Shown: positions 1 through 25,392, counted from the first letter of the stretch. The stretch is 64,000 nucleotides of DNA from a virus (IMGVR_UViG_3300021399_000002:1-64000), one strand, 5' to 3'. Notes: generated by a model from the sequence alone, not told the origin. Numbers and translations: made by a program.

Positions 1-1
1 T

Positions 2-139
2 GCTCCCGTGAGCGCACAGGAGATTGCGGACGAGACCGGGATTGCCCGTGGTAAGATTGTGTATGGTCTGACTAACTACTGGAAATCCGAAGTTGTTCGG
101 GATGATTCCGGTAAGACCGCCATCTACTCCCTCAAGTAA
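2..139 (+). CDS. Partial winged-helix-like protein (5' end outside window), paralog of 4123..4452
   Basis: Frame reads APVSAQEIADETGIARGKIVYGLTNYW..YSLK*, similar to PVTVADLF..KVQYALNNLW..TYRRA; terminator follows. Confidence 0.65.
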   Translation, partial: APVSAQEIADETGIARGKIVYGLTNYWKSEVVRDDSGKTAIYSLK

Positions 140-158
140 TCTTCCTTTCCTTTCCCCT

Positions 159-183
159 AACCGCCGTAAGGCGGTTTTCTTTT
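159..183 (+). terminator. Rho-independent terminator
   Basis: AACCGCC-GTAA-GGCGGTT followed by T-tract. Confidence 0.8.
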
Positions 184-191
184 ACTCAAAG

Positions 192-210
192 TTAGGTGTT
201 CAACACCTAA
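192..210. repeat. 19-bp palindrome copy 1
   Basis: TTAGGTGTTCAACACCTAA. Confidence 0.95.
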
Positions 211-231
211 AATTGTATCCAAAATACATTG

Positions 232-260
232 TTGACAAATATCAAATTTTATGATATAAT
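232..260 (+). promoter_or_regulatory. sigmaA/sigma70-type promoter with extended -10
   Basis: TTGACA-N17-TATAAT with TG at the extended position. Confidence 0.8.
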
Positions 261-309
261 TTTTCCAGAACAGGAGAAGGATACTCCCCAAACCAGAAAG
301 GATATGCGT

Positions 310-651
310 ATGGCAAGTAAGGCAAGTTTGGAAAATGCGCTTCGTACTGAAATTTTGGAAGTAATCACAGAAGCACTGTCTGAGCATTTTGATGTGGATA
401 TTATTACTGTTGGCAGCGGTGAAATTTCTTTGCCGATCACCGATGCCGAAGGAAATGAAAAGTATCCCAAGATTAAGGTTTCCATTCCTCGTGGTACTCG
501 CAACGGCGAAGGCGGCTATACTCCTTATGACGGATATAATGCCGCCGAAGAGTATAAACTTGAACAGGAAAGCAAGGCCCAGGAGCGTGCTGTTCGTAAG
601 GCTATGAGAGAAGCGGAAAAAGGAAAGAAGAAAGATGATTCCGAAGAGTAA
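310..651 (+). CDS. Hypothetical early protein with charged C-terminal tail; distant paralog of 1573..1917
   Basis: RBS GAAAGGA upstream; ITDAEGNEKY vs ITDLNGVQRY; the ORF-track start at 229 overlaps the promoter. Confidence 0.75.
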   Translation: MASKASLENALRTEILEVITEALSEHFDVDIITVGSGEISLPITDAEGNEKYPKIKVSIPRGTRNGEGGYTPYDGYNAAEEYKLEQESKAQERAVRKAMREAEKGKKKDDSEE

Positions 652-847
652 AGTATTCTATCATAAAGGACAGGCAAGAGAGTGCCGGGCGCTCTCTTGC
701 TATACCCTAAAACTTGAACTTCACGATGGAACCATTGTTGATGGCTATTACTATTGTGGACAATTCTATTCAGGCTTTGAAAAAATAACTGATAAAGTAA
801 ATCGGTGGATGATTCTACAAGAAGGAGAAAGCGTTAGACTTAACTAA
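635..847 (+). CDS. Hypothetical protein
   Basis: ORF overlapping the end of the upstream gene; ends TAA. Confidence 0.6.
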   Translation: MIPKSKVFYHKGQARECRALSCYTLKLELHDGTIVDGYYYCGQFYSGFEKITDKVNRWMILQEGESVRLN

Positions 848-859
848 CGCTTTAATAAC

Positions 860-878
860 TTAGGTGTTTAACACCTAA
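860..878. repeat. 19-bp palindrome copy 2
   Basis: TTAGGTGTTTAACACCTAA, then promoter TTGCTT..TGATATAAT. Confidence 0.95.
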
Positions 879-988
879 ATGTACCTCTTGCTTTTTTCCC
901 TCATTGTGATATAATACAATTGTTCCAAGGGAACGAAAGAAAATAACGAGAAGGACACTCGATAAAACCAGAAAGGAATTTTACGACT

Positions 989-1459
989 ATGAAGACTGTT
1001 CTGAATCTGACTGCTGATGAAGGTATGGAAATCGTTAAAGCTCTCCGCAATGTGGCTGTTGAAAACGGTTGGCATGAGGATGAACTGGAAGACTGCGGCG
1101 TTCTGATGGAGTACGGTGCCGCTATCGATGCCGCTCTGGCGGCTATGGGAATCTCTATCAACTTCGATGCCGATGAAGTTGAAGAAATGGTTTCCTCCGA
1201 TGAGTACGATGAGGACGAGGATGAGGATGAGGAAATTTCCCTTGAGGAAAAGTATCCCTCTCTGGCCGCTCTGGTTTATGACCTGCCGGATGGCCGCCGG
1301 GCTATTAAGGAAAGCGATGCCGATGAGTTTATCACTGAGTTGACCGAGCTTTTTGAGGATTGCGGTTTTGATGAAGAGGTAATAAAGTATATGCTCACGA
1401 TGGCTTGGACTACCTTCTGTAATGACTTCGGTATTGATGTGGTGGAGATGGACGAGTAA
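989..1459 (+). CDS. Highly acidic hypothetical protein
   Basis: RBS GAAAGGA; very D/E-rich. Confidence 0.8.
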   Translation: MKTVLNLTADEGMEIVKALRNVAVENGWHEDELEDCGVLMEYGAAIDAALAAMGISINFDADEVEEMVSSDEYDEDEDEDEEISLEEKYPSLAALVYDLPDGRRAIKESDADEFITELTELFEDCGFDEEVIKYMLTMAWTTFCNDFGIDVVEMDE

Positions 1460-1483
1460 TCGTCCATTTCCCCTTTCCTCCAA

Positions 1484-1502
1484 TTAGGTGTTTAACACCT
1501 AA
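1484..1502. repeat. 19-bp palindrome copy 3
   Basis: TTAGGTGTTTAACACCTAA, then TTGACT..TGATATAAT. Confidence 0.95.
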
Positions 1503-1572
1503 AATATTATCTTGACTTTTACTTTAGATATGATATAATGTGTATGAACCGAGAGAGAAAGGATGATGAAGA

Positions 1573-1917
1573 ATGGCGAAGATTACGAAGAATATTGTTG
1601 ACAAGGATTTGCGTGAGAATATCTTTAACGATATGTTCCGGAATGATTGTGATGGGTATGATTATGTAAAAATCAATGACCGTCAGTATGGTGTTCTCAT
1701 TACTGATTTGAATGGTGTTCAGCGTTATTGTCGTATTGGTGTTATCGTTGCCGAAGAGCGTGATGATATGACCGCCGAAGAACTGATGCGGTCTGAAATC
1801 AAGGCTTATCAGGCAAAGCAGGATGCTAAAACAGAAAAAGAAAAAGCCAAAGCGAAAAAGATTGCCAAGGATAAAGAGAAGCGTGAAAAGGAAAGGGCAA
1901 AGAAAGAAAATGAGTAA
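1573..1917 (+). CDS. Hypothetical protein with Lys/Glu-rich tail
   Basis: ORF downstream of promoter and RBS. Confidence 0.8.
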   Translation: MAKITKNIVDKDLRENIFNDMFRNDCDGYDYVKINDRQYGVLITDLNGVQRYCRIGVIVAEERDDMTAEELMRSEIKAYQAKQDAKTEKEKAKAKKIAKDKEKREKERAKKENE

Positions 1918-2083
1918 ATTTTGGATTGACTTTCAGGGCTATTGCTGTGTCGATGCTAATAGCAAAGAAGAAGCAGAAGAAATTTTCTGGGACAATATTA
2001 CCCCTCCAGTTAATCCTTTATATGATATCAATTATCAGGTTGATACTGTCGAAGAGGAGAAAAAGGGAAATGCTATTCAGTGA
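1910..2083 (+). CDS. Small hypothetical protein (MSKFWIDFQGYCCVDA..)
   Basis: ATG overlaps the upstream gene end. Confidence 0.6.
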   Translation: MSKFWIDFQGYCCVDANSKEEAEEIFWDNITPPVNPLYDINYQVDTVEEEKKGNAIQ

Positions 2084-2261
2084 AGAAAAATGTCCGAATT
2101 GTGGTAGCAGTGATTATGAAGTTGATATTTTCTGGGATGATTTTGATGAAGATGGCGGTAGAAGGGTATGGGAATGTGTTTGTTCATCTTGCTATACAAG
2201 ATTCAATATTATGTATGAATATAAATGTATCGGAACAACAGTTGAGGTTAGCGAAAGCTAA
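2070..2261 (+). CDS. Zn-ribbon small protein
   Basis: CPNC...CSSC motifs. Confidence 0.65.
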   Translation: MLFSEEKCPNCGSSDYEVDIFWDDFDEDGGRRVWECVCSSCYTRFNIMYEYKCIGTTVEVSES

Positions 2262-2277
2262 CTTCATTTTATTTTAA

Positions 2278-2296
2278 TTAGGTGTTTAACACCTAA
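2278..2296. repeat. 19-bp palindrome copy 4
   Basis: TTAGGTGTTTAACACCTAA. Confidence 0.95.
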
Positions 2297-2372
2297 ACTA
2301 CCCTCTTGCGATATCCTAATATTTATGGTATATTATGATTGTTCCAAGAGGAACGGAAAGGATGGATTGGAA

Positions 2373-2612
2373 ATGAAAATTTACTCCATTGAATGTATTA
2401 GTGGCGCAACAAAGGGGCCTTGCGGAATTTTTTCTACAATGAATCTTGCTCTCAGTATGATTATTTGTCGTAATAGTTTTCGTACTGATATGCCTTCCAT
2501 TTCAACGAATAATGATGAAGCATCAGTTATTTATGAGGGCAATGATGATTATAATTATGCAGAATATCACATTACAGAGCATGTTCTTGACAAATGGATA
2601 GGAGAAGTTTAA
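2373..2612 (+). CDS. Hypothetical protein
   Basis: ATG downstream of the promoter (MKIYSIEC..). Confidence 0.6.
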   Translation: MKIYSIECISGATKGPCGIFSTMNLALSMIICRNSFRTDMPSISTNNDEASVIYEGNDDYNYAEYHITEHVLDKWIGEV

Positions 2613-2816
2613 ATGAGTAATTATCTTAAAAGTTTTCAGTACACGAATAGTTTGGGCTATCAGAAAGAATTGGTCGTATATGAAAAAGTTGATGGAAAAT
2701 ATCCCGTCACGCTTTGGAGTTTGGATACTGGAGATTTCTGCGGCAACGGTAATATGACTACTCAGGAACTGAATGATTATTTAAAGCACTTCGGCATTGA
2801 AGAAAGGGTAGAATAA
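2613..2816 (+). CDS. Hypothetical protein
   Basis: RBS AGGAG; abuts the upstream stop. Confidence 0.7.
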   Translation: MSNYLKSFQYTNSLGYQKELVVYEKVDGKYPVTLWSLDTGDFCGNGNMTTQELNDYLKHFGIEERVE

Positions 2817-2817
2817 A

Positions 2818-3036
2818 ATGTATAAGATTGGACAAAAGGTTCAAATACTTGATACAATTATACCCACAATAGGATATATTATAAAAATGGAAATTGACCC
2901 TCTTGAAGAAATAGAAGTTGCTTCCGAATCTAAGGAATGGATTATATATACTATCAGAGTATATAAGCCCTTTTATATGAATGGCTATACTGACTATTCC
3001 CGTACAGAAAGAGAGATTAAAAAGACGGACGATTAA
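2818..3036 (+). CDS. Hypothetical protein
   Basis: Operon-like spacing; MYKIGQKV start typical of small SH3-like phage proteins. Confidence 0.6.
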   Translation: MYKIGQKVQILDTIIPTIGYIIKMEIDPLEEIEVASESKEWIIYTIRVYKPFYMNGYTDYSRTEREIKKTDD

Positions 3037-3477
3037 AAACTACCCTTGAAAGAAAAAGTAAGACTTCGTTAATAGAAGGTGGATGAAGTTAGAATGAGAA
3101 TCCATGAAATGACAATTTCAATGGTCGCAGACAATGGCCTAATGCCAGCTACCATCATACATAATTCTCCGAAACGGATTGTAAGTGGTATAAGGATGCG
3201 ACTGGGTTGGTTCTTCATACGGATTGGCGCCGGAATACTGTATGGAAAAGAATGGAAATATCTATCTGATTCATAACTTTTCTGATAATATTGAGAAAGT
3301 AGAGAAGAATAAAAATGCGTACACCACAGCAGAGAAAAGAACGAGCCGAACTGGTTAAGGAACTTAGTGATATTATTACTAACTGCGACAATGATACTGA
3401 TTTCTTTATTCGTCTTATCTGGGCGAATGAATGGATTAGTAATCAACTATTGAGATTTGAAAGCGAGGGACAGGAAA

Positions 3478-3735
3478 ATGCAGACGATTAAAAATTGGTT
3501 TGGTATTGAAACAGCTTACCGCTTTGAATGGAATGATGTTCGTTGCGGAATTACTATTCTTAATGTGGTTCTGATTATGCTCTTTGGCTTACAGGTTTCA
3601 TGGTTCGGCCTTGCAGTTGCGCTTTTCGGTGTATTCAAAGACCTTTCTCAGCATCGGCATATCAATGATGTTCTGATGCATTGTTCAAGTGTAGTTCTCA
3701 ATCTTTATTTCCTTTCCCTTCTCTATGGCGGTTAA
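3478..3735 (+). CDS. Membrane protein
   Basis: Hydrophobic segments; terminator-like hairpin follows. Confidence 0.7.
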   Translation: MQTIKNWFGIETAYRFEWNDVRCGITILNVVLIMLFGLQVSWFGLAVALFGVFKDLSQHRHINDVLMHCSSVVLNLYFLSLLYGG

Positions 3736-3750
3736 GCCGCCGCTTCATAC

Positions 3751-3769
3751 TTAGGTGTTTAACACTTAA
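3751..3769. repeat. 19-bp palindrome copy 5 (1 mismatch)
   Basis: TTAGGTGTTTAACACTTAA. Confidence 0.9.
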
Positions 3770-3909
3770 ATCAAACAATTGACTTTCTCTAAATTTGTGA
3801 TATACTATAATTGTTCCAAGGGGAACGAGAGGCACTCAGAAACAACCATGTGGAAACAGAAAACTCCTCAAACCTCTTGACAACAAGCAAATCCTGTGCT
3901 ATAATAAGG

Positions 3910-4020
3910 ATGTTCCCAGTAAGGGATGGACCTTCGGAGGTGAGAACTGACGGGTCGCCGTGAAATCTCCTGTAATCCCAAGGAGAGGAAGCGGACGGGT
4001 TTCCTCAACTTTCCCCGCTA
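3910..4020 (+). ncRNA. Candidate small structured RNA
   Basis: GC-rich stretch with no ORF, downstream of its own TTGACA..TGCTATAAT promoter and ending before the next promoter. Confidence 0.35.
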
Positions 4021-4122
4021 AGAAAAAAGTTGAGAAAAACACTTGACATCTTCCACGAAATGTGGTAAGATATATACGAAAACAGGGGAAGGAAAACCCC
4101 ACAAACCAGAAAGGTATTTATT

Positions 4123-4452
4123 ATGAAGAAAGCTACTCTGGAAGCCATTCGTACTACCATGCTCAACCTTGGTGTAGATGAAACCAATCCCCTGATTGTC
4201 GAACTGGATACCGAACTGAACAAGGGTGCCGCCGAGAAGGCCGCTCGTGCCGCTGAGTACGAAGCCATTCACGATCTGGTCGTGGATAACCTTACGGATA
4301 CTCCCGTGACGGTGGCCGACCTCTTTGCCGAGATTGAGGAAGAACTGCCCGAGGGCATGAATCGCCATAAGGTTCAGTACGCTCTGAACAATCTGTGGCA
4401 GGAAGAAATCGTCAAGATTGCCGGAAAGCCCAACACTTATCGTAGGGCGTAA
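4123..4452 (+). CDS. Putative winged-helix DNA-binding protein
   Basis: Promoter and RBS; C-terminal wHTH-like pattern. Confidence 0.75.
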   Translation: MKKATLEAIRTTMLNLGVDETNPLIVELDTELNKGAAEKAARAAEYEAIHDLVVDNLTDTPVTVADLFAEIEEELPEGMNRHKVQYALNNLWQEEIVKIAGKPNTYRRA

Positions 4453-4476
4453 GTATCCTTAAAAACCCTTTTACTA

Positions 4477-4758
4477 AACCGAGTGTCTGTGGGAGACCTA
4501 CACAGTCCCAGTCGAAACGCACAAAGGCTCGTGCCGAGTGTAGCGGTAGACAGTATATGTGGAGCTAAGGCGTAGAAGCATAACTGTGCAGAAGCGAGTC
4601 GCCGGGTTTACATACCTGCGGTTTACCGGTATTCATTGCGGTCTAAATTGGATGTGTCTCGACCCGAAAAACATGGAACATCCTCCGAGCCGTAGGAAGA
4701 ATTCGGTTATAGTCCGAGATGAAGCCGCCAGCGTGCCGATTTAAATCTCGGGCTTTTT
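4477..4758 (+). ncRNA. Candidate structured ncRNA (~230-280 nt)
   Basis: Closing stem AACCGAGT/ATTCGGTT, several internal helices, then CCGAGAT/ATCTCGG plus T-tract. Confidence 0.5.
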
Positions 4759-4771
4759 TATTATAATATAT

Positions 4772-4790
4772 TTAGGTGTTTAACACCTAA
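4772..4790. repeat. 19-bp palindrome copy 6 (between convergent units)
   Basis: TTAGGTGTTTAACACCTAA. Confidence 0.95.
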
Positions 4791-4806
4791 TAAAAAGTCC
4801 TGCGGA

Positions 4807-5133
4807 TTATATCCGCAGGATTCTTTTTATACTATCACAGAAGGTATCCCACCAAGTCTTTTCATACCGATAGAATGTGTCTACATAGATACGATAGATA
4901 GGATATTTTATTTCTGGATTATTCGGGTCAGGCTTCAAAAGCCAAAGTTCATCTTCCCATTTATCTCCCGGGCCTACCCAATTAGTAGAAAGCCATTTTG
5001 TTTTTCCCAATTCATGTACCGAATCAAGAATATTTTCATCCGTCAGATTCCCGTCATACTCTACCCCACCATAAACAATTTCAGACCCACCAAGTTTAGA
5101 ATACACAAGACGTTTAACTTTAATTATTTTCAT
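4807..5133 (-). CDS. Hypothetical protein
   Basis: ORF coupled to 5130..5495. Confidence 0.75.
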   Translation of the reverse strand: MKIIKVKRLVYSKLGGSEIVYGGVEYDGNLTDENILDSVHELGKTKWLSTNWVGPGDKWEDELWLLKPDPNNPEIKYPIYRIYVDTFYRYEKTWWDTFCDSIKRILRI

Positions 5134-5495
5134 TTTCCCAACACCTGCCTATATGCTATCTCCCAAGCCATATGCAATGCATCATGACTCGTCAACTGCT
5201 GAGTTTTCCCTGTATAGTGTCTCAGAAGAGTATTATTTATTTGCTTATATTGCCTTAAATCATCATCATATGCGGCAACAAGATTCAGAATATGTTTCTG
5301 ATAGGTTTCAATCTCTTGAAGTTCTATATTCTTATCTGGCCCATCAGGAAGCATTTCTGCACTTCCTTTACACAGAATAATCTTGCGGCAACAAGCTATC
5401 ATTGTTTGCCTATGCTCATATAGATTATCTAATAGTCCTTTCATATGAATATCTTCACTGCTCCAAGTATCAGACTCTTTTTTCCTTCCAAACAT
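5130..5495 (-). CDS. Hypothetical protein
   Basis: RBS AAAGGAG and minus-strand promoter TTGACT..TGATATAAT at ~5525-5553. Confidence 0.8.
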   Translation of the reverse strand: MFGRKKESDTWSSEDIHMKGLLDNLYEHRQTMIACCRKIILCKGSAEMLPDGPDKNIELQEIETYQKHILNLVAAYDDDLRQYKQINNTLLRHYTGKTQQLTSHDALHMAWEIAYRQVLGK

Positions 5496-5561
5496 ATCTT
5501 CATCTCCTTTCCGATTACATACATATTATATCAAATCTAAATAAATAGTCAATAGATTTAT

Positions 5562-5580
5562 TTAGGTGTTCAACACCTAA
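5562..5580. repeat. 19-bp palindrome copy 7
   Basis: TTAGGTGTTCAACACCTAA. Confidence 0.95.
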
Positions 5581-5722
5581 TTTAATAGGCTTTCGCCTAT
5601 TCTAACATGGAATCATTCTTTTATCAATTTTTCGGCCGCTTCATAGCACATACCCAAATAGAAAGCGCAACCATTTCTACAAGATATATCCAATACATTT
5701 AATTCTCCTTTGTTTAACAATA

Positions 5723-6139
5723 TTAAACCTCTCTGCTATAAAAGCACCAATTGCCAGCAAACTTATATTCTAATTTAAATCCCTCAGATTCTAATATATG
5801 TCTCATCGTATAGTTATCTTCCCATGGAGTCGCGCCAATTTTACAATCCCGCATAAGATTCACAAGTTCATGAATAATAAATCGGGCAATCCCTTTTCCG
5901 TAATTCTTTTTATTTAATATACATAAACGCTTAATCGCAATATAATCCCACGCATCTTCTTCCACTAATGAAAATGTAGCCAAAATTTTGTCGCCTTCGT
6001 ACACGCAATATAAACGACATATTAAATAATCATTCCGTGCTTGATTGGCAGTACAAAAAGAAATATCTTTATAGTGTAGAGCTTTACAAATCTTCGCACA
6101 ATCTTCTTTCGTTGCTACTCTAATCCTCATCTCTCTCAC
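5723..6139 (-). CDS. GNAT-family N-acetyltransferase
   Basis: MRIRVATKED start; NYGKGIA acetyl-CoA loop; N..MRHILESEGF C-terminal motif. Confidence 0.8.
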   Translation of the reverse strand: MREMRIRVATKEDCAKICKALHYKDISFCTANQARNDYLICRLYCVYEGDKILATFSLVEEDAWDYIAIKRLCILNKKNYGKGIARFIIHELVNLMRDCKIGATPWEDNYTMRHILESEGFKLEYKFAGNWCFYSREV

Positions 6140-6186
6140 CTCGGATAGAGTATATCATATTTTATACTAAAAGACAACTACCATAT

Positions 6187-6205
6187 TTAAGTGTTTAACA
6201 CCTAA
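6187..6205. repeat. 19-bp palindrome copy 8 (1 mismatch)
   Basis: TTAAGTGTTTAACACCTAA. Confidence 0.9.
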
Positions 6206-6209
6206 ATCA

Positions 6210-7100
6210 ACCACTTGACAAATTCCCTAAAATGTGCTTATCCCCTTGTATACAGTATACAGTATCCAGTATTTTTATGGCGCCCTTTCTGGCGCAAGCA
6301 TCTCGTAGCTGTCAAGTACTTGACAAGCCGCCGCATCAAGCTGCGCGAGCTGCGCCTATAAGCTGGACGCGCTATAAGCTGGAAAGCTGGAAAATTCCGC
6401 GGCAAATATTTGACATAAGCTGGAAAGCTGGACCGGAGAAGCTGCTGTCAAGTATGTATACTGTATACATATTTAAGCTGAAAAAAGCTGGAATTTAAAA
6501 ATTGTTTGGGACTTCCATACAGATAGGCGCTTCACTTATTCAGCGCGCACGAAAAATTCTATTGCGGAAAGCTGCATTATTCCCGATGCTATCGAGAGCT
6601 CAGAAGCTGAACGCAATATGATTTTTCGTAAATGCCATTTTGAAAGGGCATTCGCCCGCAAAATACGCACCCTTTTCAGGCGCATTTGATATTTTCTATT
6701 TTAGCTGGAAAAAGGGTACTACTTTCGCCGCGAAAATTTTCTCAGTAGAAGAAAAATTTTTAGCTTACTACTACTTTAATATTATATACATATATATGTA
6801 AGAAGGTGGGAGGGAAAATATATAAATATAAATAGTCAATAAATAATATCATTTATGTCTGTTTAGGGGGATCGCACGAAAAAATCTATTGCGCAAGGCC
6901 ATGAGTATAAGTTAAAATAAGCTGCGTATTCTAATGGATAGAGAAGTAAAAATTTATTGTCAGAAAATGTTGTCAAGTATTTGACAAAGTATTTTTTCTT
7001 ATGGTATAATAAAGAAAAAAATAAATATTTAAAATAATTTTATTTTTTAATTAATTTTTTGTTTGAAAAAAGTAAAAAATTGTGGCACATCCACCCAATT
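6210..7100. repeat. Repeat-rich non-coding region (origin/terminus candidate)
   Basis: About a dozen same-strand AAGCTG(G) copies; 15-bp IR 6247-6261/6455-6469; palindrome TGTCAAGTACTTGACA 6310-6325; AT tracts. Confidence 0.6.
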
Positions 7101-7267
7101 TCCCGCTTCATCAACCTCTATACCGATTGCTATCGAGAAGTACCAATATACACCTTCACATCGGAACCCCATTGCCCTATAATCAATTTATTTTCCCGCT
7201 TTCTTGCTTATTTATTGTAAGAGTAGTGAACCCCGACTTTACTATTAATTTTTGTAGGAGTTAAAAA

Positions 7268-7501
7268 ATGGCATTTATTATAAAAGAGTTTGATAAGTAT
7301 AGTAGGTGGGATAGAGAACATGCCACTTATACTTTTAGTATTAATGATAATATGTATGCGGTTATGAAGGTTAGAATGGAGTGGGGATTGCCGCAGGTGC
7401 CTATGCAAGTAGAATATGATGAGGATTTGGGGATATATTAGGTGTATGAGACGGAGGAGTAGGCAATGGAGTTTGTGCGTTTAGTACATTCGTTAAATTG
7501 A
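7268..7501 (+). CDS. Hypothetical protein (2 in-frame TAG)
   Basis: RBS AGGAG; open to TGA if TAG is read as sense. Confidence 0.7.
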
Positions 7502-7577
7502 CGGCGCGAACCATACATAATATGGGAGTACGCGCCTATTTTTTATGGCATCCTATACTATATTTAGAGGTGAGAAT

Positions 7578-9230
7578 ATGAGAGAGCATTAGGATGCGAA
7601 AGAATTTGCTATACATGATATTATTGAGTTAGTAAGAAAAACTAATTTATAGGATATGAATACTTTTTTGGTATTGAACGGCGGCACCGGTGTTGGTAAG
7701 ACAACTGCTATTATGGATAAGGTACTTTAGGTGTTAGATGAGAAGTGCCACGGGCCGCAAACTATGCTTGTTGTGGAGAGTAGGAGTATTACGGTGGAGT
7801 AGCTGCGGCATAAGTATGGGGAAACGGATGTTTGCCAGAGAATGGGATTTGCTAATATGATTTGCCGCGGTGCCGTAGACTATGATTGGGTTGTGATTGA
7901 TGAGTGTCATGGGTTATTTAGTGAGGCATCGTTCGCAGAAGATACAACTATTATTGGTGAATGGATTAGGAGCGGCCGCACTTACTAGCATGTAATATTT
8001 ATTACGGCGAATGATGAGTATTTTGAGGAATTGGCGAAATAGTTTTTCGCGGAAGAATGTAATTTTATTTATTTGTTTCCAGATTTTACTAAGTATGTTA
8101 GTAATACTTATGTGAAGGAGATATAGTTTATTAAGACTAGGAATACGAATGATACATTTAGTTATTTTATAGAGTAGGAAAAGAATAAGCGTGGTATTGT
8201 ATTTTTAAAGAGCGCGAGTAAGGTTAAGGATTGGTATTTTCGTCTTATAGATTAGAAGAAGTAGGTTGCTATGTTTGTTTCGCGCGCGAATTAGACATCG
8301 CTCGCGCTTAGTATTGAGTAGGCAAGTATTGCGGCAAATGATTTGATGTTGGATTTAAGCGGCGGCGAAAGCGGCCTGACTCTTGCGGACTTACAAATAA
8401 TGGCGGATAAGTAGAGAATTGCGGCAGGTAAGGAGTCATTGTTTGAGGCATTGGTTAATGAGCATTTGCCGGATGATATATAGATTTTGTTGGTGACGGA
8501 TACATTATAGGAAGGTATGAGTCTTACATTTCCTAAAATAGACTTCATGATTATTGAAGGGTATGGGGAAGTTGAGATTAGATAGAAGGTAGGTAGGTTT
8601 CGCGGCAATTTGGATTAGCTTTTTATTGTATTCAATCCTAATAATGCTATACGAGATTTTCAAATTCAATTTAATATGTTTACATACTATCGTAAGTTAT
8701 AGGATGAGGGGAATTAGATTGAGCTGGCGAAGTAGTATGGGATAATAAAAGGCGCGAAATTTAAAGTTAGATATATAGTAGAACGGCAATTTCAAAATGG
8801 AATTAAGTATTATGAGATAAATGAATAGGCTTACTTACATCTCCTAAAAGAGCACCAGGATTATTTAAGGCTAATTTCAAATTCAAACTTGGCGGTATAG
8901 GAGATGTACTCATATTTAGGCGCCAATCCCGTAATTATCCCCCCAAATGAAATTCGAATTTCATTTTAGAAAGAGAAATTAATAAAGATTGCGGATAAAT
9001 GGAGAAAAATTCCCTTAAAGGGCCCCGCATAGGAGGAACTTTTGGAAAACTTTGCGCGCGAAGGTATTAGAGATAGAAGCGGGAAAAAGGTTAATTCATT
9101 GCGCGCTTGTATTACATTGTTTACAAATGCGGAAATTTCAGTTGCGGAAAAATAGGCAACAGTTAAGGATGTAGAATAGTGGCCGCAATATCTTACTAAG
9201 GTGAGGGAAAAGTATAGGTATATTGTTTAA
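7578..9230 (+). CDS. SF2 DExH-box helicase, ~550 aa, TAG-recoded (absent from ORF track)
   Basis: Walker A NGGTGVGKT, DECH, FITAN, DTL*EG, R*KVGRFR (motif VI); roughly 25 in-frame TAG; ends TAA before a terminator. Confidence 0.9.
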
Positions 9231-15877: not shown

Positions 15878-15975
15878 ATTACTAAAAAAATAAAGCAATA
15901 TTTGCTGCTTCTAAAGGCACAAAAATATAGAGAAAAGTCTTGTACTTTTTAATTCGAGAGAAAGGAGGGAATGGT

Positions 15976-18900
15976 ATGGCATATGTACCCTATGAAAAAT
16001 AGTCTTGGAAAGTAGGCGATCCTATTACGCAAGAAAAAATGACACATATTGAAGATGGTATTCTTGCTGTGAATGATGTATCTACTACTGCATCGCAAGC
16101 ATTGCAAACGGCAACAAATGCCGCGTTTGAAGCAAGCGTAGCAAACCAAGCTATTTCAAGAATGGAAAACAATTCTACTGCTGGCGCAAAAGCATGGACT
16201 TAGATTCATGAATATCTAGGGAAACCAAGTAGCGTTGATGGAACAGAATTAAAGGCAAAAATACAAAGCGAACATAGCGCTCTTACAAGTAGTATTACGA
16301 CTAATACAGAAAGTATCTCAGCTAATACAGTTAAAATTAATGCTAATTCTAGTAGTATTGGACTAATTAATTCTTAGCTTATTGCCGCGGCGCAAGCAGC
16401 AAACCTGTTTAGCACTAATGTGGTTGGAGATAGTGTTGCTGCGCAAATTAGTGATTTGCATAATGCTATTGTCGTGGATAGAAGTCTTATTAGTACTCTT
16501 AATAATATAGTAATTCCAACATCTGGTTCTACTATAGTTGAAAGATTAAATCAATTAGAAGTAAGTTCTGAATAGCTTACTACTGAACTTACAAATGCTC
16601 GTGGTACTAATGCGGTAGGCGGTGCGAATGCGGACTTAGATACTCGTCTAGACGCTATTGATGGCGGAAGTAATCCAAGTAGAACTCTTCCAAATGTTAT
16701 CTAGGAAGTAGAAGGCGCGCGTGGCGGTTATGATAGTGTCAATGCGAGATTAGATAAGATTGATGCCGCAGGCTCTGCTGATAATAAGACTCATAATTAT
16801 CGTATTACAGCTATTGAAAGCGAGATAAATGCAGCTCGTAATGGTGAGGTTAACTTAGATACTAGATTGGACGCATTAGATACAACTGTTAATAATAAGG
16901 TCGCAAAGGATGATATTAAGAAAGTTTTAACTTATGATGTAGATGATGATACTGTTCTTCAAGCGCGTCAAGGTAAGATTTTAAATGATAATATCAATAC
17001 TGTGGCGGCAGAAGTAACTAATGCACGCACTTCTTCCGTAATTCGTACTCCAGGTGAAAACGAAGGAGACCCAGATACAGATACTACTTATAATTCTTTA
17101 GATGAGCGTTTAGAAGCAATTGAATCTAATGCTGCTACTACTGCAACTAATCTTCGTACCGATTTAAATACAATTGCTAATGAGCTAGCTATGCTAGACA
17201 ACGGTACAATTGTAGACACTAATACTAAAATTGATAACTTAGAAGCAGATGTACAAAGTTTTGCCGCAGAGTTGTCAATGACTCGTGATGAAGATACTGG
17301 GCGATTAATTGATACCAATACTAAAGTAGATGAATTAAATACTAGGATTGGTACTGCTGAAACAGATATTGATAATTTAGAAGCAGAATTAGATGCCGAT
17401 ACTACTGGTTTAAAAGATAGAATGACCGCAGCAGAAACCACAATTGGTAACTTATAGTCTGCTGATACGGAATTAGATAGGCGTTTAGATGCTATTGATG
17501 GCGGTTCAGCCTTAACTGGTGCGAATACATTAGCTAGTAGAGTTGCTACTGTTGAAAGTAACCTATCAACCGCAGAAGGTAAAATTACAACTTTAGAAGG
17601 AAAAGTAACAGCACTTGAAACTGCACCAAAATCTGCTACAGTAGTTATTGAAGAAAACAGAATTACTTATGATGAAACAACTGGTGCGCCAACTATCTAT
17701 ATTGATAGTACAAAGCAAACAGCGGATATTCCTTCCACTGATGTTGATTATTTACTATAGAATGGAGATAAGTACTATTATTGGAAATATATTAAAACTG
17801 GTTCTAATCCCGATACTTATGAATGGGCTTTAATCAGTAGTGGTAGTGGTTCTGGCAGCGGTAATACTACTGGCGTGGTTTACACTGCTGAAGAATATAG
17901 TGCTTTAGAAGATAGAGAAGAAAATACAGATTATTATGTATTAGAAAATGATGGTTATCATCATTATCGTTATGTAGGGGAAAATGAAATAGAAATTGGG
18001 GTATCTAAAAAGTATAATGCGTTTATAGAAACTATTGAAAATGAAGATACTATGGTTCATTATTTCAATTTATATGAATTTAATTACGATGAAGATGATA
18101 CTGTTAATGAAGATAATATAGAATCATTATATAATAGAGGAAAGCGCAAAGTTCATTTATTATTACCAGCAACGGGCGGTGGCGGTGGTACCGTTAATAA
18201 CATGAAAATTTTACCAGTCACACCTCGTAATACATCAATGGCATTTAACAGCTCTGTTCCAACTAAAATTAGATTCTTCTTTACTACAGGGGAAGCTAAT
18301 GAACCGGCGAGTTATAATTTTACTGTTGATGGAACTACTATTTTAAATTTACCACAAGCAATTACAAGTGGCGATCCAGTAAATAAATCATATTCTTGGC
18401 CCGTAGATGAAAATGAAGACGAATTATCTGATGCTGATGCTGCGGCGCTAGGTTTCTATTCAATAGATATTTCTAATTATTGCAACACAGTTGGAACACA
18501 TACAGTTCGTATTACAGTTGCTCTTGACTCCAATTCAGCGATTACAGTAGATTAGACTTGGACAGTTACCACATTTAATCTAGCAATCACTTCTAATTTT
18601 ACAAATAACCCTATATATACTCAAGGAGATAATGTAATATTTACATATATTCCAAGTGGTAATGTTGAAAAAGTTGCTCATTTTAAATTAGACAATACTG
18701 AAATTGGTACTGTTTCTTTAACTGCGAAAACTAATACAGAACAACGTTATACTATCACTTCTCCTTCTGCCGCTGGGGCGCATAAATTAGAGGTATATTT
18801 AACCGCGAATAATGGTGCAACGAAATCATCTAGTATATACCGTGATATTATCTGGTAGGCCGCGGATAATACTGATATCATTATTGCATCTCCTTATCGT

Positions 18901-21900
18901 GGAAATACTAATATTAGATTAACATAGTATGAATTATTAGCTATCCCATATACAATAGTTGGCGGCAATAATCGCTATACTGTAGAATATTATATAGATG
19001 ATATGGAGCATAGTGTTAATGAAGTATCATTAATTAATACTAATGCTGGACAGTGGAATTATAGAGCTGATGTCGATGGTGAACATACATTAATGGTTAA
19101 GTGCGGTGACGCTTTTATTACATTTAATGTTAATGTACAAGAATCATTGTATGATATTGCTCCAGTAAATTCTCCTGCTCCAATTATTGATTTTAATCCA
19201 TCTGGTATTACTAATACCTCTAGTAAACGTTTATGGACAAATGGTACTTATAGTTTATCGGTATCTGATAATTTTGACTGGTACAATGGCGGTTATGGCA
19301 CTGATGTAAATGGTGATTATTTCTTAGTTAAAGCCGGCACTAGAGCAGTATTTAATTATAAGATGTTTAAAGGATATTCTAAGACTGTAGATGAAGCCAT
19401 TACCACTGCGAGCACTGTATTTAGAGATGGGCAGGAAATGAAAATTATTTTCAAGACATCTGCAGTACGTAGCGCTGATGCAGTATGGTTTACTAATATG
19501 GCTCCTACAAATAATACTTCCGCGGCAAAAAATGTAGGTATTCAATTAAATGTACATAATGGTTGGTTAAAAACAGACTCCGCGCAAGAGTCTACTAAAT
19601 CCTATCTATACTTCCCATATTCAGAAGAAGATAGAATTGAATTAGATATTAATATTAATCCAGATACTGCACCAAATGCAGTTTATATTATGTCTTATGA
19701 AGATGGATGCCCAAGCCGCGCGTATCCTTATAAAACTACAGAAGCTTTATACCAGTATGCTGGTTCTGAAGCGCCAATCACTATCGGTTCAGATGACTGT
19801 GATGTATATATTTATAGATTACGCATCTATGATAGTGCATTAGATACAGAACAAGTATTACGTAACTTTATCGCAGACGGTAAAGATGTTACTGAAAAGC
19901 TTGAACGTTATACTCGTAATAGTATTTATTATGATACTCAAACAGAAGAATTTACTCCTTATACTGGACCAGATACTATTTTAGATCCAGAGCGCTTAGC
20001 ACAAAAAATTCCTGATGTAAAGATTTTAATGCTCGAAGCTCCACGCTTTACAACAGAAAAGAAAGACTTTGTAGCTAATTCAACCTTACGTTGTATCCAT
20101 GCTCTTGGCGGGAAAATCTACCCCAGCCGTGGAAAAGAAGATAACTGGTTCTTTGGAAATGGTTATCATTCTGGTCAAGGTACTACTTCAGATAAATATG
20201 GCGATGCAGGGCGTAATATTGACTTCTTATTTAATTGCGATGGTATTCATAATCCTTCTGATAAAGTTACTCCGGGAAAAGGATTTATTGAAGGATATAA
20301 ATCTTATGTAATTAAAGGTTATGGAACAGAAGAGGAAGAAGAACCAGAATATTGTTCTGATTGGAAAGGCGATGATTGTAAAGTTTCATTAACTTCTACT
20401 TCTATTCCAAATAATTTCTTTAATTTAAAAGTTAATATTGCCTCTTCTGAAAACGTTAATAATGCTTTATTCCAAAAAAGATTCAATGATTTCTTAAAAG
20501 ATATTTATGAGTCTCCTGCATATAAACGCGATAATAGAATTAAAAATGATATGGAATTTGTTCCTGCAATTCTATTCCTTCGTGAAACGGATACTACTCA
20601 TACAGAAGAAACCGTTGAAAATAAATAGGTAATTAATTATACAAATCATAAAGAATTTAATGATACTGAATGGCATTTCTATGCATTAGGAAATATTGGT
20701 GATAGTAAGAAAACTGACTACACACGTGCATATGATCCTACTGACATGAATGAATTCACTCTAGAAATTTCTGATAATAATACTAATAACTCTCAGTTCC
20801 AGACTGGTGTATATATGAAGAACGGAGTCCGCACAATTGAAGGATATACTGTTGAGCAGGATTACGATGAAGAAAAACAGAAATATAAAGATACATATAG
20901 CGCAGTTTCTTCTGAAAGTGATATTACAGTATTAACTACAGATTATTTATATCCAATTAATCGTGAGACAGAATGGGAAGCTGTAGATGAAAATGGCTAG
21001 CCTCTTAATATGAGATATTGGGGCTTAATGAATGAGAAATTTGATGGAGACCATTCATTTGAAATGCGTTATGCCTGTAAAGGTGATTATCGTGATGGTA
21101 AAATCGTTAATGATACAACTGGTCAGGCAAATTCATAGTTAGCATTAAATACTAAAGTATGGCAATCATTCTATACTTGGTTAGTAACTTCTACTGATAA
21201 ACAGTTTGTCGATGAATTAGACTTATGGTGTGTTAGACCGGCAGTAGCATATTTCTATGCGTTTACTCATTATTATACAATGATTGATAATCGTGCAAAA
21301 AATACTTTCTGGCACTTTGCTAAAACCGGTACTCGTCGAGCGGTTCCAATTGGTAGAGCTTTTGAAGGTTTAATGCATATTTATGAATAGGACGATGGAG
21401 AAGGCGGATATGAACCTGCGACCGCGCCATTCGATAATAAGAAACAGTATTATACACAATATGCATTTGATATGTGGGCATATGATATGGATACTGCGGC
21501 AGGTATTGATAATAATGGTGAACTTATTTTCCCATATGGTAAAGAAGACACTGATTATCGTGTAAAAGATGATCCAAGTTCTGGCCGCGTATATAATGGA
21601 GCAGGCTCTGTATTCTGGGCACGTTTACGTGAGAATTGTAATGATGCAATTACAGCAGCATTCACGGGCGTCAGTCAAGAATGCTTCAATGCTGATAATT
21701 TAATTGTAGAATTTGATAAAGTACAAAATTGTTATCCAGAAGCTATATGGCGGTTAGATGTTGAACGTAAATATATTCGTCCATTTACAGGCGATACTGA
21801 AGCGCCAGATGATAATCCATATCAAGCTATCGCTTTAACTCGTTAGAATAGCCGTTTCTTAGGCGATATGATGCAAGGACGTAAAAAATATCAACGTCGT

Positions 21901-24900
21901 CAATGGATTAAAAATCAAGATGTATACTTTGGTAGTAAATATATGCTAAGTAGTGTGTCTAGTAATCAATTTGATATGGTATGCTACACAATCGCAGATC
22001 AAAATGTTAAACCAAATTGGGATGTCACTATTACACCGTATTAGGATATGTATTTAAATGTTGACTATGGTGAAAATGCTATTCGTGGTAGACGCGCATA
22101 CGCGGGAGTACCTGTAGAAATTAAATGTCCATTTACTGAAATGAATGAAAGTAGATTGCGTATTTATGGCGCTGATTATATCCAAGCTTTGGCTGGAAAA
22201 GCAATTAGAGCGGATGAAAATGATCCTAATAGTGAGATTATTGGTGCGGAAAGCTTAGCTTCTCTTTATTTCAGAGGCAATGATTTTAGTCATGCTAATA
22301 AATTACGCGAATTAATTATTGGTTCTTCAGATCCAACATATAATAATAGTCAATTTACTACATTAAATATTAGTAATAAAAATCCAAACTTAGAATTATT
22401 AGATATTCAAAATTGTAGTGGATTGGGTGGTGCAATTGATTTAACACAATCGACCGCATTAAAAACTGTAAAAGCATAGGGTACTTCATTAACATAGATT
22501 AACCTACCAAGTAGTACTGGTATTGTTAATTTATATTTGCCAACTACTATTACTCGTTTAGCTTTAACTTCAGCTAAAAATTTAACTAATTTAACAATTA
22601 AAGCAAACACTGCAACATCTACCGATCCAAATACTCCGGTTGCATTAAGTGAATTAATTATAAATGATAGTGATTATTCTCCTAATATTAATTGGATATC
22701 AATAGCCGAAAGTGCTTTATCTCATTTAACCAATTTACAATTATTAAATTTAAATGGGTATTCTTCAATTCATGATATTAACGAAATGGAAATGTTCGTA
22801 GAACGAAAGAATGCCTTAGGAGTATTTGTAAATGAAAATGGAGATACTATTGCACGAATTAATTTAAATGGTGTTATTAATGTTACTGGTACTTGGTCTG
22901 AAATTGAAGCAAAACAATATGCTAATACTACAAATGTATAGACGTATGATAGCGAGACGGATACTTATAATACAACACAAATAATTACTAGCACCACTGG
23001 TGTATGGCCTGATTTAACCTTAAATGCTCGTGGTACTAAAACTACAAAATATGCTATTACTTATAAATATGATAGTTATGTAAATGATGAAGGCGATATA
23101 GTTGAAGGAGATGTTATTACTACTTTATATATTACAAGTGGTGTTCGTATTCCTGATATTTATAATACAGGTGTAATTGAGATGCCAACTCGTAATTCTA
23201 CTGTACGTAATAATTATACATTCGGCGAGCGTTCATTTGGTAATTACATTGTAAACTCTGGTTGGAAAGCAGAAAATTCTGATGCCGACTCTTATTTTAC
23301 TACTATGCCTCTAGCCACTAGTAATATGGTAATTGAAACACACTTCCGTAGTGAAGTACGCAGATATCCAGTTAAATGGTATATGCATCGCAATGATCCA
23401 GATTCCTTAGTAAAAACTAGTACAAGTAATGTAGAATATGGTAGCGGCGAAAATCTTGAAGCACCAACAATTCCTGAAATTCACGCGGCTGGTTAGGTTA
23501 CATATACAGTATCTATTGCAAATGATATTGCAACTTACTCTATCTTTACTGGTTGGGAAACCTTACCAATTAATATTCATCCAAGCGCTACAGACGATGC
23601 TTATAACATTTATGCTACTTGGGAAACTGCTCCTTCTATTTCTTTAGGTGATTTATTTGCTGATACATCTAATCTAACTCCAGAGCAGTTATTAGTTTAT
23701 TCTCATATGAATAGTACTTAGCGTAATAATTATGCTAATAGCACAAAGATTGGCGCGGGTCAAAGAATAACTTATACATTAGGTTAGGATAGTATTGAGA
23801 CAGGAACAACACTAGTAGATCCTAGCAATATATTACGTTTTGACTTAAATGCTAGTTTAGCACCAGTTAAAACTAATATATAGCCAATGACTAGTGCTAA
23901 TAATGAGTTCACTATTATGATTGACTATAGCTTTAATCCAGATGCTGTATATGAAAATACAGATAACGCGGGTGTCTTAATGAGTTGTTATTATTAGAAT
24001 TCTTCTACAAATGTTGTTAGTGGATTCGCGCTATATAATAATTTGAATTCTAATTTAGGCAGCCTTGGCCCAAGAGTTGGATTTGGCGATATGTTTAATA
24101 GTAGTGCTTATTCAGTATCTGTTGGCGCGAATGGTAATGGCAATTATAATACTCGTAATGTAGTTGTATTACGGCATCCTAAAGACAGTACAGTATTATA
24201 TGTTTATTCTGGTTTTAGTGGAAATAATCATATAAACTCTGCTGTAAATGTATAGACAATTACTTGGAATAATTCCACATCAAATGCTTATATTAACTTT
24301 GGGCAATTAACTGATGATACTAGTTCTGAATATGATAATTTAAAGGATGTAATCAAGAAAGCAAGCGGTACTATATATCAAGCTAAGTATTGGAATAAAG
24401 ACTTAGGTGTTGGTGAATGTAAGCGCCTTGCGGCATGGCCTCATGAATTAGTTACATTTGGTATTACCAATATAGCTAATACAGTAAGTACCGGCTCTCC
24501 TGCAGATACTAGTTCAGTACCTGCAGTTGGCTTAACAACCTTAACAACTTCTAATCACGGATTGTTTGCTGAAGACACCACTGCAGTTGGATGGGGAAGT
24601 TCTACATATAATACTATTGTAAATAATGGAGTTATATTAGGATTACCTACTAAGTTACAGGCTATTTTAAGTAAACCTGCTGTTAAATATCTTACTATTG
24701 TGTCATCAGAAAATAATGGAGTTACTATTAAAACATTATCAAATACAACTTCAAGTTAGAGAAATTATCTCTACTTCCCAAGTGTGGTTAATATTGACAG
24801 TAATACAAGTTCTAAATATGGCGCTGAAATAGTAAATGTTAATTATGAAACTGCTCCATTCTTATGGGTTAATGGTGGTAATGTTACTGTTTATGAATAT

Positions 24901-25392
24901 AATCCTACTGCTGATGGACATTGGAATCAAGTAAGTGATAGTAATGCTAGCCGTTATATGAACTTACGTTTCCCGATGAAACCTATTAACAATACAGTAC
25001 GAATATTCAGAGAAAGTAGCTCAACATTCTCTACTGGAAATAGTACTAATATTTATACTGAAATTATTGCTAAAGTTAATGAAATTAATACTGGTGATAT
25101 CTTTATTGACATTAATGGACATGCATATATGTATGTCTCTGATAATGATGTAATGACTCTTGGTGTACAAGTATAGACACCAACTGGTATATTTACTGCT
25201 CCCGCTGGTGGCTGGATGTCTTCAATAGGCTTCTGGACTCGTTCTATGATGGAAGCAGATGCTTATTCTAGTTACTCTAATGCAAATCATTTTGTATATT
25301 CTAGTTAGACTGGTGTGGTTGTTACAAGTTATTCTTCTAGTACAGCGGCGCCAAGTAGTGGCCTTGGCCTCAATTATTCTATTTCTATTTAA
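15976..25392 (+). CDS. Giant (~3138 aa) tail/virion protein: coiled coil, LamG-like, CotH-kinase-like and LRR-like regions; TAG-recoded
   Basis: ORF-track pieces 16867-25176 are all one frame and end in TAG; N-term [23 protein letters not shown]; GQGTTS, DNRAKN and [13 protein letters not shown] motifs. Confidence 0.85.

Follow-up and report, generated by a model that had tools for sequence, protein, structure and literature searches.

A helically phased 19-bp palindrome in the early region of an uncultured gut phage as a putative operator and crossover site

Introduction

No part of large phage genomes changes faster, or is less well understood, than the early host-takeover genes. The closest described arrangement to the one reported here is that of the promoter-early stem-loop (PeSL) cassettes of T4-type phages (Arbiol et al. 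2010, PMC2839356; Comeau et al. 2014, PMC4122927). Here, we describe an array of early gene cassettes in an uncultured gut phage, built around a 19-bp palindrome with a 9-1-9 layout, TTAGGTGTTNAACACCTAA. The stretch of DNA analysed, referred to as the window throughout, comprises the first 64 kb of the 182,655-bp viral record IMGVR_UViG_3300021399_000002 (G000), and the part of the array located in it extends from position 192 to 6205.

Upstream dyad sites from which a bound protein touches RNA polymerase are effective on one face of the helix, and a single site of this kind can serve divergent promoters. Helical phasing is a hallmark of proteins that touch the polymerase from upstream. The class I sites of CRP are found at -61.5, -72.5 and -82.5, those of P2 Ogr and P4 Delta at about -55, and phi29 p4 binds upstream of promoters A2c and A3; a weak promoter is activated, and a strong one repressed, through one and the same contact of p4. 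The early promoters of T4 and those of the SPO1 host-takeover module carry A-rich or UP elements upstream, and the -63 to -45 region is where UP elements and class I activator sites lie. In N4-type hairpin promoters, which lack sigma-70 boxes, the hairpin is itself the promoter, and transcription starts at a distance of about 11 nt from its loop. DtxR-type repressors, finally, cover the core promoter, and their iron-box consensus is TTAGGTTAGCCTAACCTAA (PMC7762939). The present locus is compared with these systems in the Discussion, and a limited literature search found no paper describing such an arrangement.

Results

A single array of palindromes in the phage genome

The motif, with up to two mismatches allowed, was scored across the 64-kb window and the whole record. 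The window contains exactly eight matches, six perfect and two with one mismatch, all of them intergenic (Table 1), and no further copy was found in the rest of its length. No match was obtained in 100 dinucleotide-preserving shuffles of the window (0 expected by chance). The pattern scan and the shuffles thereby confirm the count, mismatch tally and intergenic placement given in an earlier note on this DNA.

In the whole record the count rises to 37, and allowing a third mismatch adds none. All 37 copies are located within 167944..182256 or 192..6205, leaving the other 160 kb free of the motif. The ends of the record overlap exactly over 127 bp, so that the map is circular (182.5 kb), and the two intervals constitute a single array of ~21 kb cut in two by the arbitrary start point of the record. 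The window thus holds the right-hand third of it. The scan of the whole genome and of relatives, which the earlier note had proposed, gives one 37-copy array here and further arrays in relatives (see below).

None of 185,579 bacterial and archaeal species genomes showed enrichment of the exact motif, and the four single hits obtained are about chance level; it is therefore not a host motif. Likewise, a similarity search with positions 1-7000 of the window against 50,697 deposited phage records returned no match, and a search of positions 1-9000 against Rfam gave nothing near any gathering score.

The palindrome is part of a stereotyped promoter unit

Almost all copies are part of a repeated unit with one order of elements. 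A GC hairpin with a T-run, the predicted terminator of the preceding cassette, is followed within a few nucleotides by the palindrome, and a 9-nt spacer then leads to the -35 box and the -10 box. The promoters are near-consensus and of sigma-70 type (TTGACW, 16-17 nt ending in TG, and a TATAAT-like hexamer), and in standard numbering the dyad spans about -63 to -45. As many as 35 of the 37 copies are found 8-9 nt from a -35 box, 33 on the + strand and two, at 5562 and 6187, at 9 nt on the - strand; this count includes the copy at 173548, which fell under the score cut-off of the script and was added by eye (TTGCTT at 9 nt). For the + strand copies of the window at 860, 1484, 2278 and 3751 the distance is exactly 9 nt. 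The two remaining copies are the one at 192, with its -35 box at 21 nt, and the one at 4772, which has no promoter. The earlier note had placed most of the palindromes ~10-22 nt upstream of a -35 box; the upstream position stands, and the exact values are 9 nt (six copies) and 21 nt (192). Its description of copy 4772 as lying between convergent 3' ends without a promoter was borne out, as two convergent terminators flank this copy.

The 9-nt spacers are AT-rich and variable in sequence, albeit fixed in length. Most copies have a separate GC hairpin with a T-run in front of them, and a T-run is absent from the palindrome proper. In 22 of 36 units the predicted transcript begins with a 6-7-bp hairpin (e.g. 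window 920-937, 2340-2357 and 3811-3829), the stems of which vary by compensating changes (TTGTTCC/GGAACA, TTGTCC/GGACAA, TGTACC/GGTACA, ACTCC/GGAGT); this hairpin probably stabilises the 5' end or is recognised by an RNA-binding regulator. Each cassette contains one to five small open reading frames (ORFs), almost all without family assignment, and Pfam and PHROGs searches with 20 array proteins returned no curated family.

Conservation and replacement of the palindrome in relatives

Relatives were collected via an exact-pattern scan of IMG/VR (42 loci on ~17 contigs) and via a profile of the winged-helix family encoded in the array (38 loci, many on contigs other than those of the pattern scan), and six further complete or nearly complete genomes were compared. 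Relatives at 65-85% nucleotide identity keep 20-40 copies of the palindrome each, in one clustered array per genome: ~22 copies of TTAGGTGTT-N in G001, 36 of TTAGATGTT-N in G007, 32 of TTAGATGTA-N in G008, 38 of TTRGATGTA-N in G010, and 39 copies of a 20-bp form, TTAGATGTT-NN, in G009. On other contigs the arms read TTAGGTGGT or TTAGGTGTA, and the version of the palindrome is thus specific to the clade. Across six genomes arm positions T1, T2, T6 and G7 are invariant and positions 3-5 are purines, i.e. the half-sites of the dyad are conserved, and the 19 bp remain identical while the surrounding sequence diverges to 65-75% identity.

Other relatives carry different elements upstream of their promoters. 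In G006, L081, L085 and L086, which lack the palindrome, 25-30 copies of a 16-bp inverted repeat, GTTARA-N4-TYTAAC, were found, often two per intergenic region and followed by a near-consensus UP-element sequence and then TTGACA. A mixture of upstream motifs (TTGTATACAGTAT, TTTAAYANNTTGTAACAA and A/T tracts) was observed in L058, L059, L063, L068, L071 and L073, and mostly A/T tracts in L060, L075 and L076. The palindrome itself contains no A/T tract and no match to AAAWWTWTTTTNNNAAA at -40 to -60, the position at which A/T tracts are present in the relatives G006, L060 and L076. As relatives fill the same promoter position with various elements, this position is a modular slot, and the 19-bp palindrome is one of several fillings. 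In G006 (L091-L099) the 16-bp repeats, 25 copies at about 41-57 kb, are usually paired around a GCCGGCG element, and the upstream architecture differs at orthologous cassettes (compare L080 with L082). The use of G006 as a fully palindrome-less control was partly withdrawn on account of these 25 related repeats; the 19-bp form is still absent from it.

The distance to the promoter is helically phased

In the four 19-bp-form genomes the distance from palindrome to -35 box is 9 nt in about 90% of copies, with exceptions at 20-21 and 31-34 nt. In G009, with its 20-bp form, the distances cluster at 7-9 (11 copies), 17-19 (20 copies), 28-33 (6 copies) and 36-39 nt (3 copies). The spacing follows a period of about 10.5 nt (9, 20 and 31 nt, and in G009 8, 18, 29 and 39 nt), which places the site on a constant face of the helix with respect to the polymerase and suggests contact with it. 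Duplication does not explain the phasing, because the spacers differ in sequence. Palindromes shared by two divergent full promoters were observed in G007 (104991, at 9 and 10 nt) and G009 (106309, at 29 and 30 nt), which fits a symmetric binder. In combination, the fixed 9-nt spacing and its periodicity favour an operator coupled to the promoter over a simple marker of cassette boundaries.

Cassettes are rearranged at the palindromes

Cassettes have been reordered, gained, lost and inverted among relatives, with palindromes at the junctions. The order of cassettes differs between genomes, and families f2, f5, f11, f12 and f32 are permuted here relative to G007. For gene pairs adjacent in one genome and with both members encoded in a second, adjacency was kept in 40 of 61 within-cassette pairs (66%) versus 66 of 186 pairs spanning a palindrome (35%), corresponding to an odds ratio of 3.5 (Fisher p = 5e-5, the pairs not being independent). 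Gene changes also occur within cassettes, and the palindrome is therefore a preferred breakpoint and not the sole one.

Inversion leaves a recognisable layout. An orphan palindrome together with a shared one was seen three times, at 4772/6187 in the window and, as independent cases, at 104472/104991 in G007 and 106945/106309 in G009. The G009 cassette between the latter two (169 aa) is co-oriented with its neighbours in G008. A cassette flipped with its own palindrome would give back-to-back palindromes and none between terminators; the layout observed is the expected product of crossovers inside the palindromes. No recent inversion of 4791-6186 was seen, all close relatives sharing the orientation, so that this flip is old. 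Joints between promoter units in Logan contigs from public runs gave no usable evidence of inversion or excision isoforms within this phage, as they have sides of 20-38 nt and stem from repeats or from co-occurring relatives.

The earlier note had read the region as an array of promoter-gene-terminator cassettes whose symmetric boundaries could allow shuffling or inversion, by analogy with PeSL modules. The layout of the units and the comparison with relatives support the former, the palindromes at cassette junctions and the three orphan/shared pairs support the latter, and the analogy is apt (PMC2839356). The breakpoint comparison that it had suggested agrees, with adjacency lost more across palindromes than within cassettes and gene content varying among relatives.

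Winged-helix proteins do not track the palindrome

The two winged helix-turn-helix (wHTH) proteins of the window, 2..139 and 4123..4452, had been put forward as candidate binders of the palindrome. They are real winged helices and true paralogues (33% identity, E = 7e-14), although Pfam and PHROGs give sub-threshold winged-helix hits only, and the structural model of the second has generic matches to Z-alpha, Fur, ArsR and forkhead proteins. Two to four such paralogues are encoded in every related array. However, they do not follow the motif. In an alignment of 108 members the recognition helices hardly vary between clades, whichever palindrome these carry and even where there is none, and L080 (36 palindromes) and L082 (none) encode near-identical sets. 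In view of this lack of covariation, the array paralogues were rejected as specific binders.

A further wHTH protein of 124 aa, encoded at genome positions 107520-107894 (L054:1438-1812) between gyrase-like and single-stranded-DNA-binding-protein (SSB)-like genes, passes the Pfam cut-off for HTH_24 and is conserved in all six complete relatives. It is found also in the palindrome-less G006, at 65% identity, and is probably a middle-gene regulator. Overall, the winged-helix proteins are unlikely as specific binders.

A 110-aa protein co-occurs with the 19-bp palindrome

All ORFs of the genome were screened for presence in 19-bp-form genomes and absence from G006 and the palindrome-less loci. 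The sole array gene to survive encodes a net-basic protein of 110 aa (genome 175052-175384, outside the window), and is located inside the array behind a palindrome promoter of its own (copy 174969). Its family (alignment A2) was found in every 19-bp-form record with an array available, at 31 loci on about 25 contigs; these include G000, G001, G007, G008, G010 and G016-G019, the last four searched as whole records. It was absent from 11 of 11 records without the 19-bp palindrome, namely G006 (complete), G011-G015 and G020-G024. On a tree of the wHTH genes, at least 5 changes of the palindrome trait fall on branches with good support, the best tree giving 10, and the 110-aa gene tracks the palindrome at each change; with five pairs the sign test gives p = 0.06, the minimum attainable, and the tree, drawn from a short marker in a mosaic region, is indicative only.

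The family has 705 members in public metagenomes, none of them named and none with a Pfam domain. The model of the protein (predicted local distance difference test score, pLDDT, 86) consists of a helix, four strands and two helices, and in the ESM Atlas it matches its own viral clusters and weak RelE- and DUF4258-like leads below 0.85. A homodimer prediction scored 0.00 without control runs, which speaks neither for nor against dimerisation. Four other candidates were discarded. Those of 102 aa (170075-170383), 96 aa (a zinc ribbon, 64163-64447) and 266 aa (27011-27811) all occur in the palindrome-less G014, and that of 79 aa (172994-173233) is missing from many palindrome loci. The 110-aa protein is hence left as the best candidate, and its actually being the binder is possible rather than probable, as judged from genome comparison.

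Other features of the window

The features of the array within the window are collected in Table 1. The ~110-nt non-coding stretch after the promoter at 3877-3905 may be a candidate small RNA. This promoter and the one at 4043-4071 are conserved in palindrome-bearing as well as palindrome-less relatives, and the word depth over 3877-4071 in run X1 reaches 8-12x baseline, so that many co-occurring relatives share the segment. Downstream of the wHTH gene, a non-coding stretch of ~300 nt (4453-4770), G+C-richer than its surroundings and with a terminator at its end, is a candidate structured RNA; no Rfam family matched it.

Table 1. Coordinates of the palindromes, promoters and genes of the array in the window
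Feature	Position	Strand	Remarks
Palindrome copy 1, perfect, centre C	192..210		-35 box 21 nt downstream
Promoter TTGACA-17-TATAAT with TG extension	232..260	+	drives 310-651 and 635-847
Palindrome copy 2, perfect	860..878
Promoter TTGCTT-16-TATAAT	888..915	+	9 nt past copy 2; 5' hairpin TTGTTCC/GGAACG; drives 989-1459
Palindrome copy 3, perfect	1484..1502
Promoter TTGACT-16-TATAAT	1512..1539	+	9 nt past copy 3; drives 1573-1917, 1910-2083 and 2070-2261
Palindrome copy 4, perfect	2278..2296
Promoter TTGCGA-17-TATATT	2306..2334	+	9 nt past copy 4; 5' hairpin; multi-gene cassette 2373-3735
Palindrome copy 5, one mismatch in right arm	3751..3769
Promoter TTGACT-16-TATACT	3779..3806	+	9 nt past copy 5; 5' hairpin
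Palindrome-less consensus promoter TTGACA-17-TATAAT	3877..3905	+	precedes ~110-nt non-coding stretch; conserved in all clades
Palindrome-less promoter TTGACA-17-TAAGAT, A-tract upstream	4043..4071	+	drives wHTH gene
wHTH paralogue 1, 3' part	2..139	+	gene start at genome 182347
wHTH paralogue 2, 109 aa, long helix and winged helix	4123..4452	+	model pLDDT 94
Palindrome copy 6, perfect, orphan between convergent terminators	4772..4790		read as convergent inversion junction
Leftward cassette, genes 5130-5495 (121 aa) and 4807-5133 (108 aa)	4807..5495	-
Promoter TTGACT-16-TATAAT	5525..5552	-	9 nt from copy 7
Palindrome copy 7, perfect	5562..5580		serves - strand promoter
Leftward cassette gene, 138 aa	5723..6139	-	weak GNAT acetyltransferase signal, below cut-off
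Promoter TTGTCT-17-TATACT	6149..6177	-	9 nt from copy 8
Palindrome copy 8, one mismatch	6187..6205		- strand promoter on one side; on + side TTGACA at exactly 9 nt with decayed -10; read as divergent inversion junction

Directly after the last palindrome, a non-coding stretch of ~1 kb (6206-7260) is dense in repeats: ATAAGCTGGAAAGCTGGA occurs twice along with shorter copies, the 17-bp palindromes TGTCAAGTAYTTGACAA are found at 6310 and 6971, the inverted pair TGTATACAGTATACA at 6247/6455 and CGCACGAAAAATTCTATTGCG three times, and there is an AT-rich core at 6780-6860. From its sequence, the stretch resembles an origin of replication or a hub of regulation. In the relatives L058, L059, L071 and L073, the motif TGTATACAGTAT is found upstream of -35 boxes.

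The ORFs of the array have no in-frame TAG. Eleven long late ORFs (7545-54673) are open only with TAG read as sense and contain 1-28 TAG each, the large ones 5-28, and a tRNA with anticodon CTA is encoded at window 55157-55242. These features would fit an early region read by the unmodified host machinery, with stop-codon recoding confined to later genes. The giant protein of the structural region, a 3150-aa ORF with 28 in-frame TAG (15940-25392), has no Pfam domain above cut-off.

Discussion

A putative early operator that may also allow crossover

The reading that we favour, with moderate confidence, is that the palindrome is a phased operator for a putative phage-encoded symmetric binder that would co-ordinate the early regulon, recombination being a by-product of symmetry and copy number. 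Each palindrome would be the upstream operator half of one stereotyped early-promoter unit, used ~35 times. A symmetric dimer of the phage-encoded protein would bind the dyad on the face of the helix that allows contact with the host RNA polymerase, and this contact would set the whole early regulon at once. The symmetric sequence is also present at each boundary between cassettes, and any two copies are at the same time direct and inverted repeats of each other. Crossover inside the palindromes is possible because each copy is its own inverted repeat, and such crossovers could delete, insert, reorder or flip cassettes; after a flip, an orphan palindrome would be left where terminators converge (4772), and two divergent promoters would share another (6187). 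The earlier note had considered an operator model insufficient in view of copy 4772. This holds for an operator alone; an operator combined with palindrome-mediated inversion would account for all eight copies.

As to the direction of control, feedback shut-off of early transcription appears somewhat more likely than activation, because the promoters are already near-consensus and strong. At promoter A2c, phi29 p4 holds the polymerase at a strong promoter, and an early product acting after this precedent would give timed shut-off. Conversely, the UP elements found in the same slot of sister phages argue for a boosting role.

Several observations weigh against the operator reading or against the candidate proposed for it. 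Near-consensus promoters need no activator, so that regulation could run in either direction, and the 16-bp repeat of G006, related to the palindrome, has a different arm spacing that a simple dimer-site model fits poorly. The 110-aa family is absent from G009 despite the closely related 20-bp palindrome there, and the twelve records scored as absent comprise 10 fragments and two complete genomes. The co-occurrence could also stem from the gene travelling with palindrome-type arrays, albeit wHTH genes of the same arrays behave otherwise. The protein belongs to no Pfam or PHROG family; Foldseek against the PDB returned nothing at E <= 0.001 and a wide VIA-align search a best Z of 3.9, and the faint look-alikes are RNase and toxin folds, not DNA binders. 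Because no convincing structural relative was found, its role is deduced from co-occurrence alone. Moreover, its sequence does not covary with the G/A arm variants, the proteins of G010 (TTRGATGTA) and the present genome (TTAGGTGTT) being 91% identical.

Alternative explanations

The palindrome might be a recombination seam and nothing else, kept by copy-and-paste and gene conversion and read by no protein, in the manner of PeSLs, which are a proven precedent for promoter-linked repeats as crossover sites (PMC2839356). The variable cassette order, the inversion junctions inside palindromes, and the loss of adjacency, which is about two times more frequent between cassettes parted by a palindrome than inside a cassette, are all in line with this. 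However, copy-and-paste leaves unexplained the 9-nt spacer of fixed length and variable sequence, the rarer spacings one, two and three helical turns further out, and the identity of the 19 bp amid flanks diverged to 65-75%, and gene changes within cassettes show that the palindrome is not the sole breakpoint; we regard a pure seam as unlikely. A role as hairpin or cruciform, extruded by supercoiling near active promoters or formed as an RNA hairpin in read-through transcripts, e.g. for an RNase-like 110-aa protein, would account for arms that change together in relatives (TTAGGTGTT to TTAGATGTT, and in G006 GTTAGA/TCTAAC to GTTAAA/TTTAAC), for a centre of 1, 2 or 4 nt, and for the RNase/toxin-like look-alikes of that protein. 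G-U pairing nevertheless predicts a strand bias among half-changed copies, and none was observed (6 vs 4 here, 6 vs 3 in G002). Placed after a terminator and before a promoter, the palindrome is seldom part of a transcript, its fixed helical phase to the -35 box is left unexplained by a role as RNA, and the adjacent promoters are of ordinary sigma-70 type, unlike N4 hairpin promoters. We attach hardly any weight to this explanation.

If a protein reads the dyad, it could instead be a regulator of the host. An operator for a metal-dependent repressor of the DtxR/IdeR/MntR type would tie early transcription to the metal status of the host, as for tox of corynephage beta, and the palindrome resembles the iron box in its 19 bp, its 9-1-9 layout and the outer six bases of each arm, which are identical to those of TTAGGTTAGCCTAACCTAA (12 of 18 specified positions; PMC7762939). 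The inner six positions differ from the consensus (GTT/AAC vs TAG/CTA), and the TTAGATGTA, TTGGATGTA and TTAGGTGGT arms of sister phages are further from the iron box. Nor is the motif enriched in any of the 185,579 species genomes, and the site ends 9 nt upstream of the -35 box without overlapping the core promoter. No phage-encoded member of the family was found above cut-off, the best PF01325 score being 19.3 bits versus a cut-off of 26, in the 124-aa wHTH protein that palindrome-less relatives also encode, and a host regulator leaves the strict co-occurrence with a phage gene unexplained; the proposal is thus very improbable. A winged-helix protein, be it an array paralogue (2..139 or 4123..4452) or the 124-aa HTH_24 protein, is a distinctly unlikely binder, though one with some points in its favour. 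All are real winged-helix proteins, two to four paralogues accompany every related array, and the gene at 4123 is driven by a separate promoter without palindrome, which would suit a master regulator placed upstream. Still, the recognition helices are almost unchanged across clades with differing palindromes or with none (near-identical protein sets in L080 vs L082), the 124-aa protein is retained at 65% identity in the palindrome-less G006, and the palindrome trait changes 5-10 times on the wHTH tree.

Implications

A more far-reaching proposal, which we put forward tentatively and regard as rather doubtful, is that the 110-aa protein founds a class of small DNA-binding regulators not described before. 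Bound to the 19-bp dyad, it would touch the host RNA polymerase from phased sites and switch ~35 early promoters together, the module of operator and regulator having been exchanged for UP elements or other motifs at least five times in relatives. The dyads would serve as built-in crossover sites by which cassettes are excised, inserted or flipped, akin to an integrase-less integron specialised for host-takeover genes. If the protein does bind, its fold would be new among DNA-binding proteins, and it might serve as a compact tool to control promoters in a co-ordinated manner.

With a short exact tag on a whole early regulon, all early promoters can be located directly across a family of uncultured phages of rumen and gut, and with one site and one small candidate protein, regulon-wide control can be put to the test. 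Close relatives in which the tag is replaced by UP elements or other motifs constitute a natural experiment. A symmetric regulatory site that doubles as a recombination point would allow cassettes to be reordered and flipped without breaking expression, thereby extending the PeSL idea beyond T4-type phages and adding inversion to it.

Comparison with known systems

The array resembles PeSL cassettes in that intergenic units, with a strong sigma-70-type early promoter and a stem-loop, are repeated around small orphan early genes, and in its hyperplastic early region, where genes are gained, lost and replaced between relatives at the repeats. It differs in the element itself, which here is an exact 19-bp dyad at a fixed helical position and apart from the terminator, whereas the PeSL is a loose ~100-bp motif with a GC stem-loop in variable places. 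The symmetry of the dyad adds inversion, with an orphan and a shared palindrome as signature. In addition, the element is interchangeable with UP elements among relatives and tied to one small protein, and it belongs to an unrelated gut phage of 183 kb in which TAG is a sense codon.

Similarly to the sites of CRP, Ogr and p4, the palindrome is a dyad upstream of the -35 box and phased. Unlike them, it is present in ~35 copies over almost the whole early regulon, next to near-consensus promoters, and its best candidate binder has no known DNA-binding fold. With the SPO1 host-takeover module and T4 early promoters the array shares dense small early genes, each with a very strong host-type promoter and terminator, and, presumably, promoters boosted or tuned through the -40 to -60 region. 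However, the UP position here is occupied by a GC-containing palindrome with no site for the C-terminal domain of the polymerase alpha subunit (alpha-CTD), and it is the palindrome-less relatives that carry consensus-like UP elements.

The DtxR/IdeR iron box is alike in length, 9-1-9 symmetry and outer hexamers, and different in inner bases and in where it is placed with respect to the promoter. A search of the large ORFs of the window, which was not exhaustive, revealed no RNA polymerase domain. In contrast to N4-type hairpin promoters, each palindrome here is followed by a full -35 box and an extended -10 box, and the start deduced from these boxes is located about 55 nt from the centre of the dyad.

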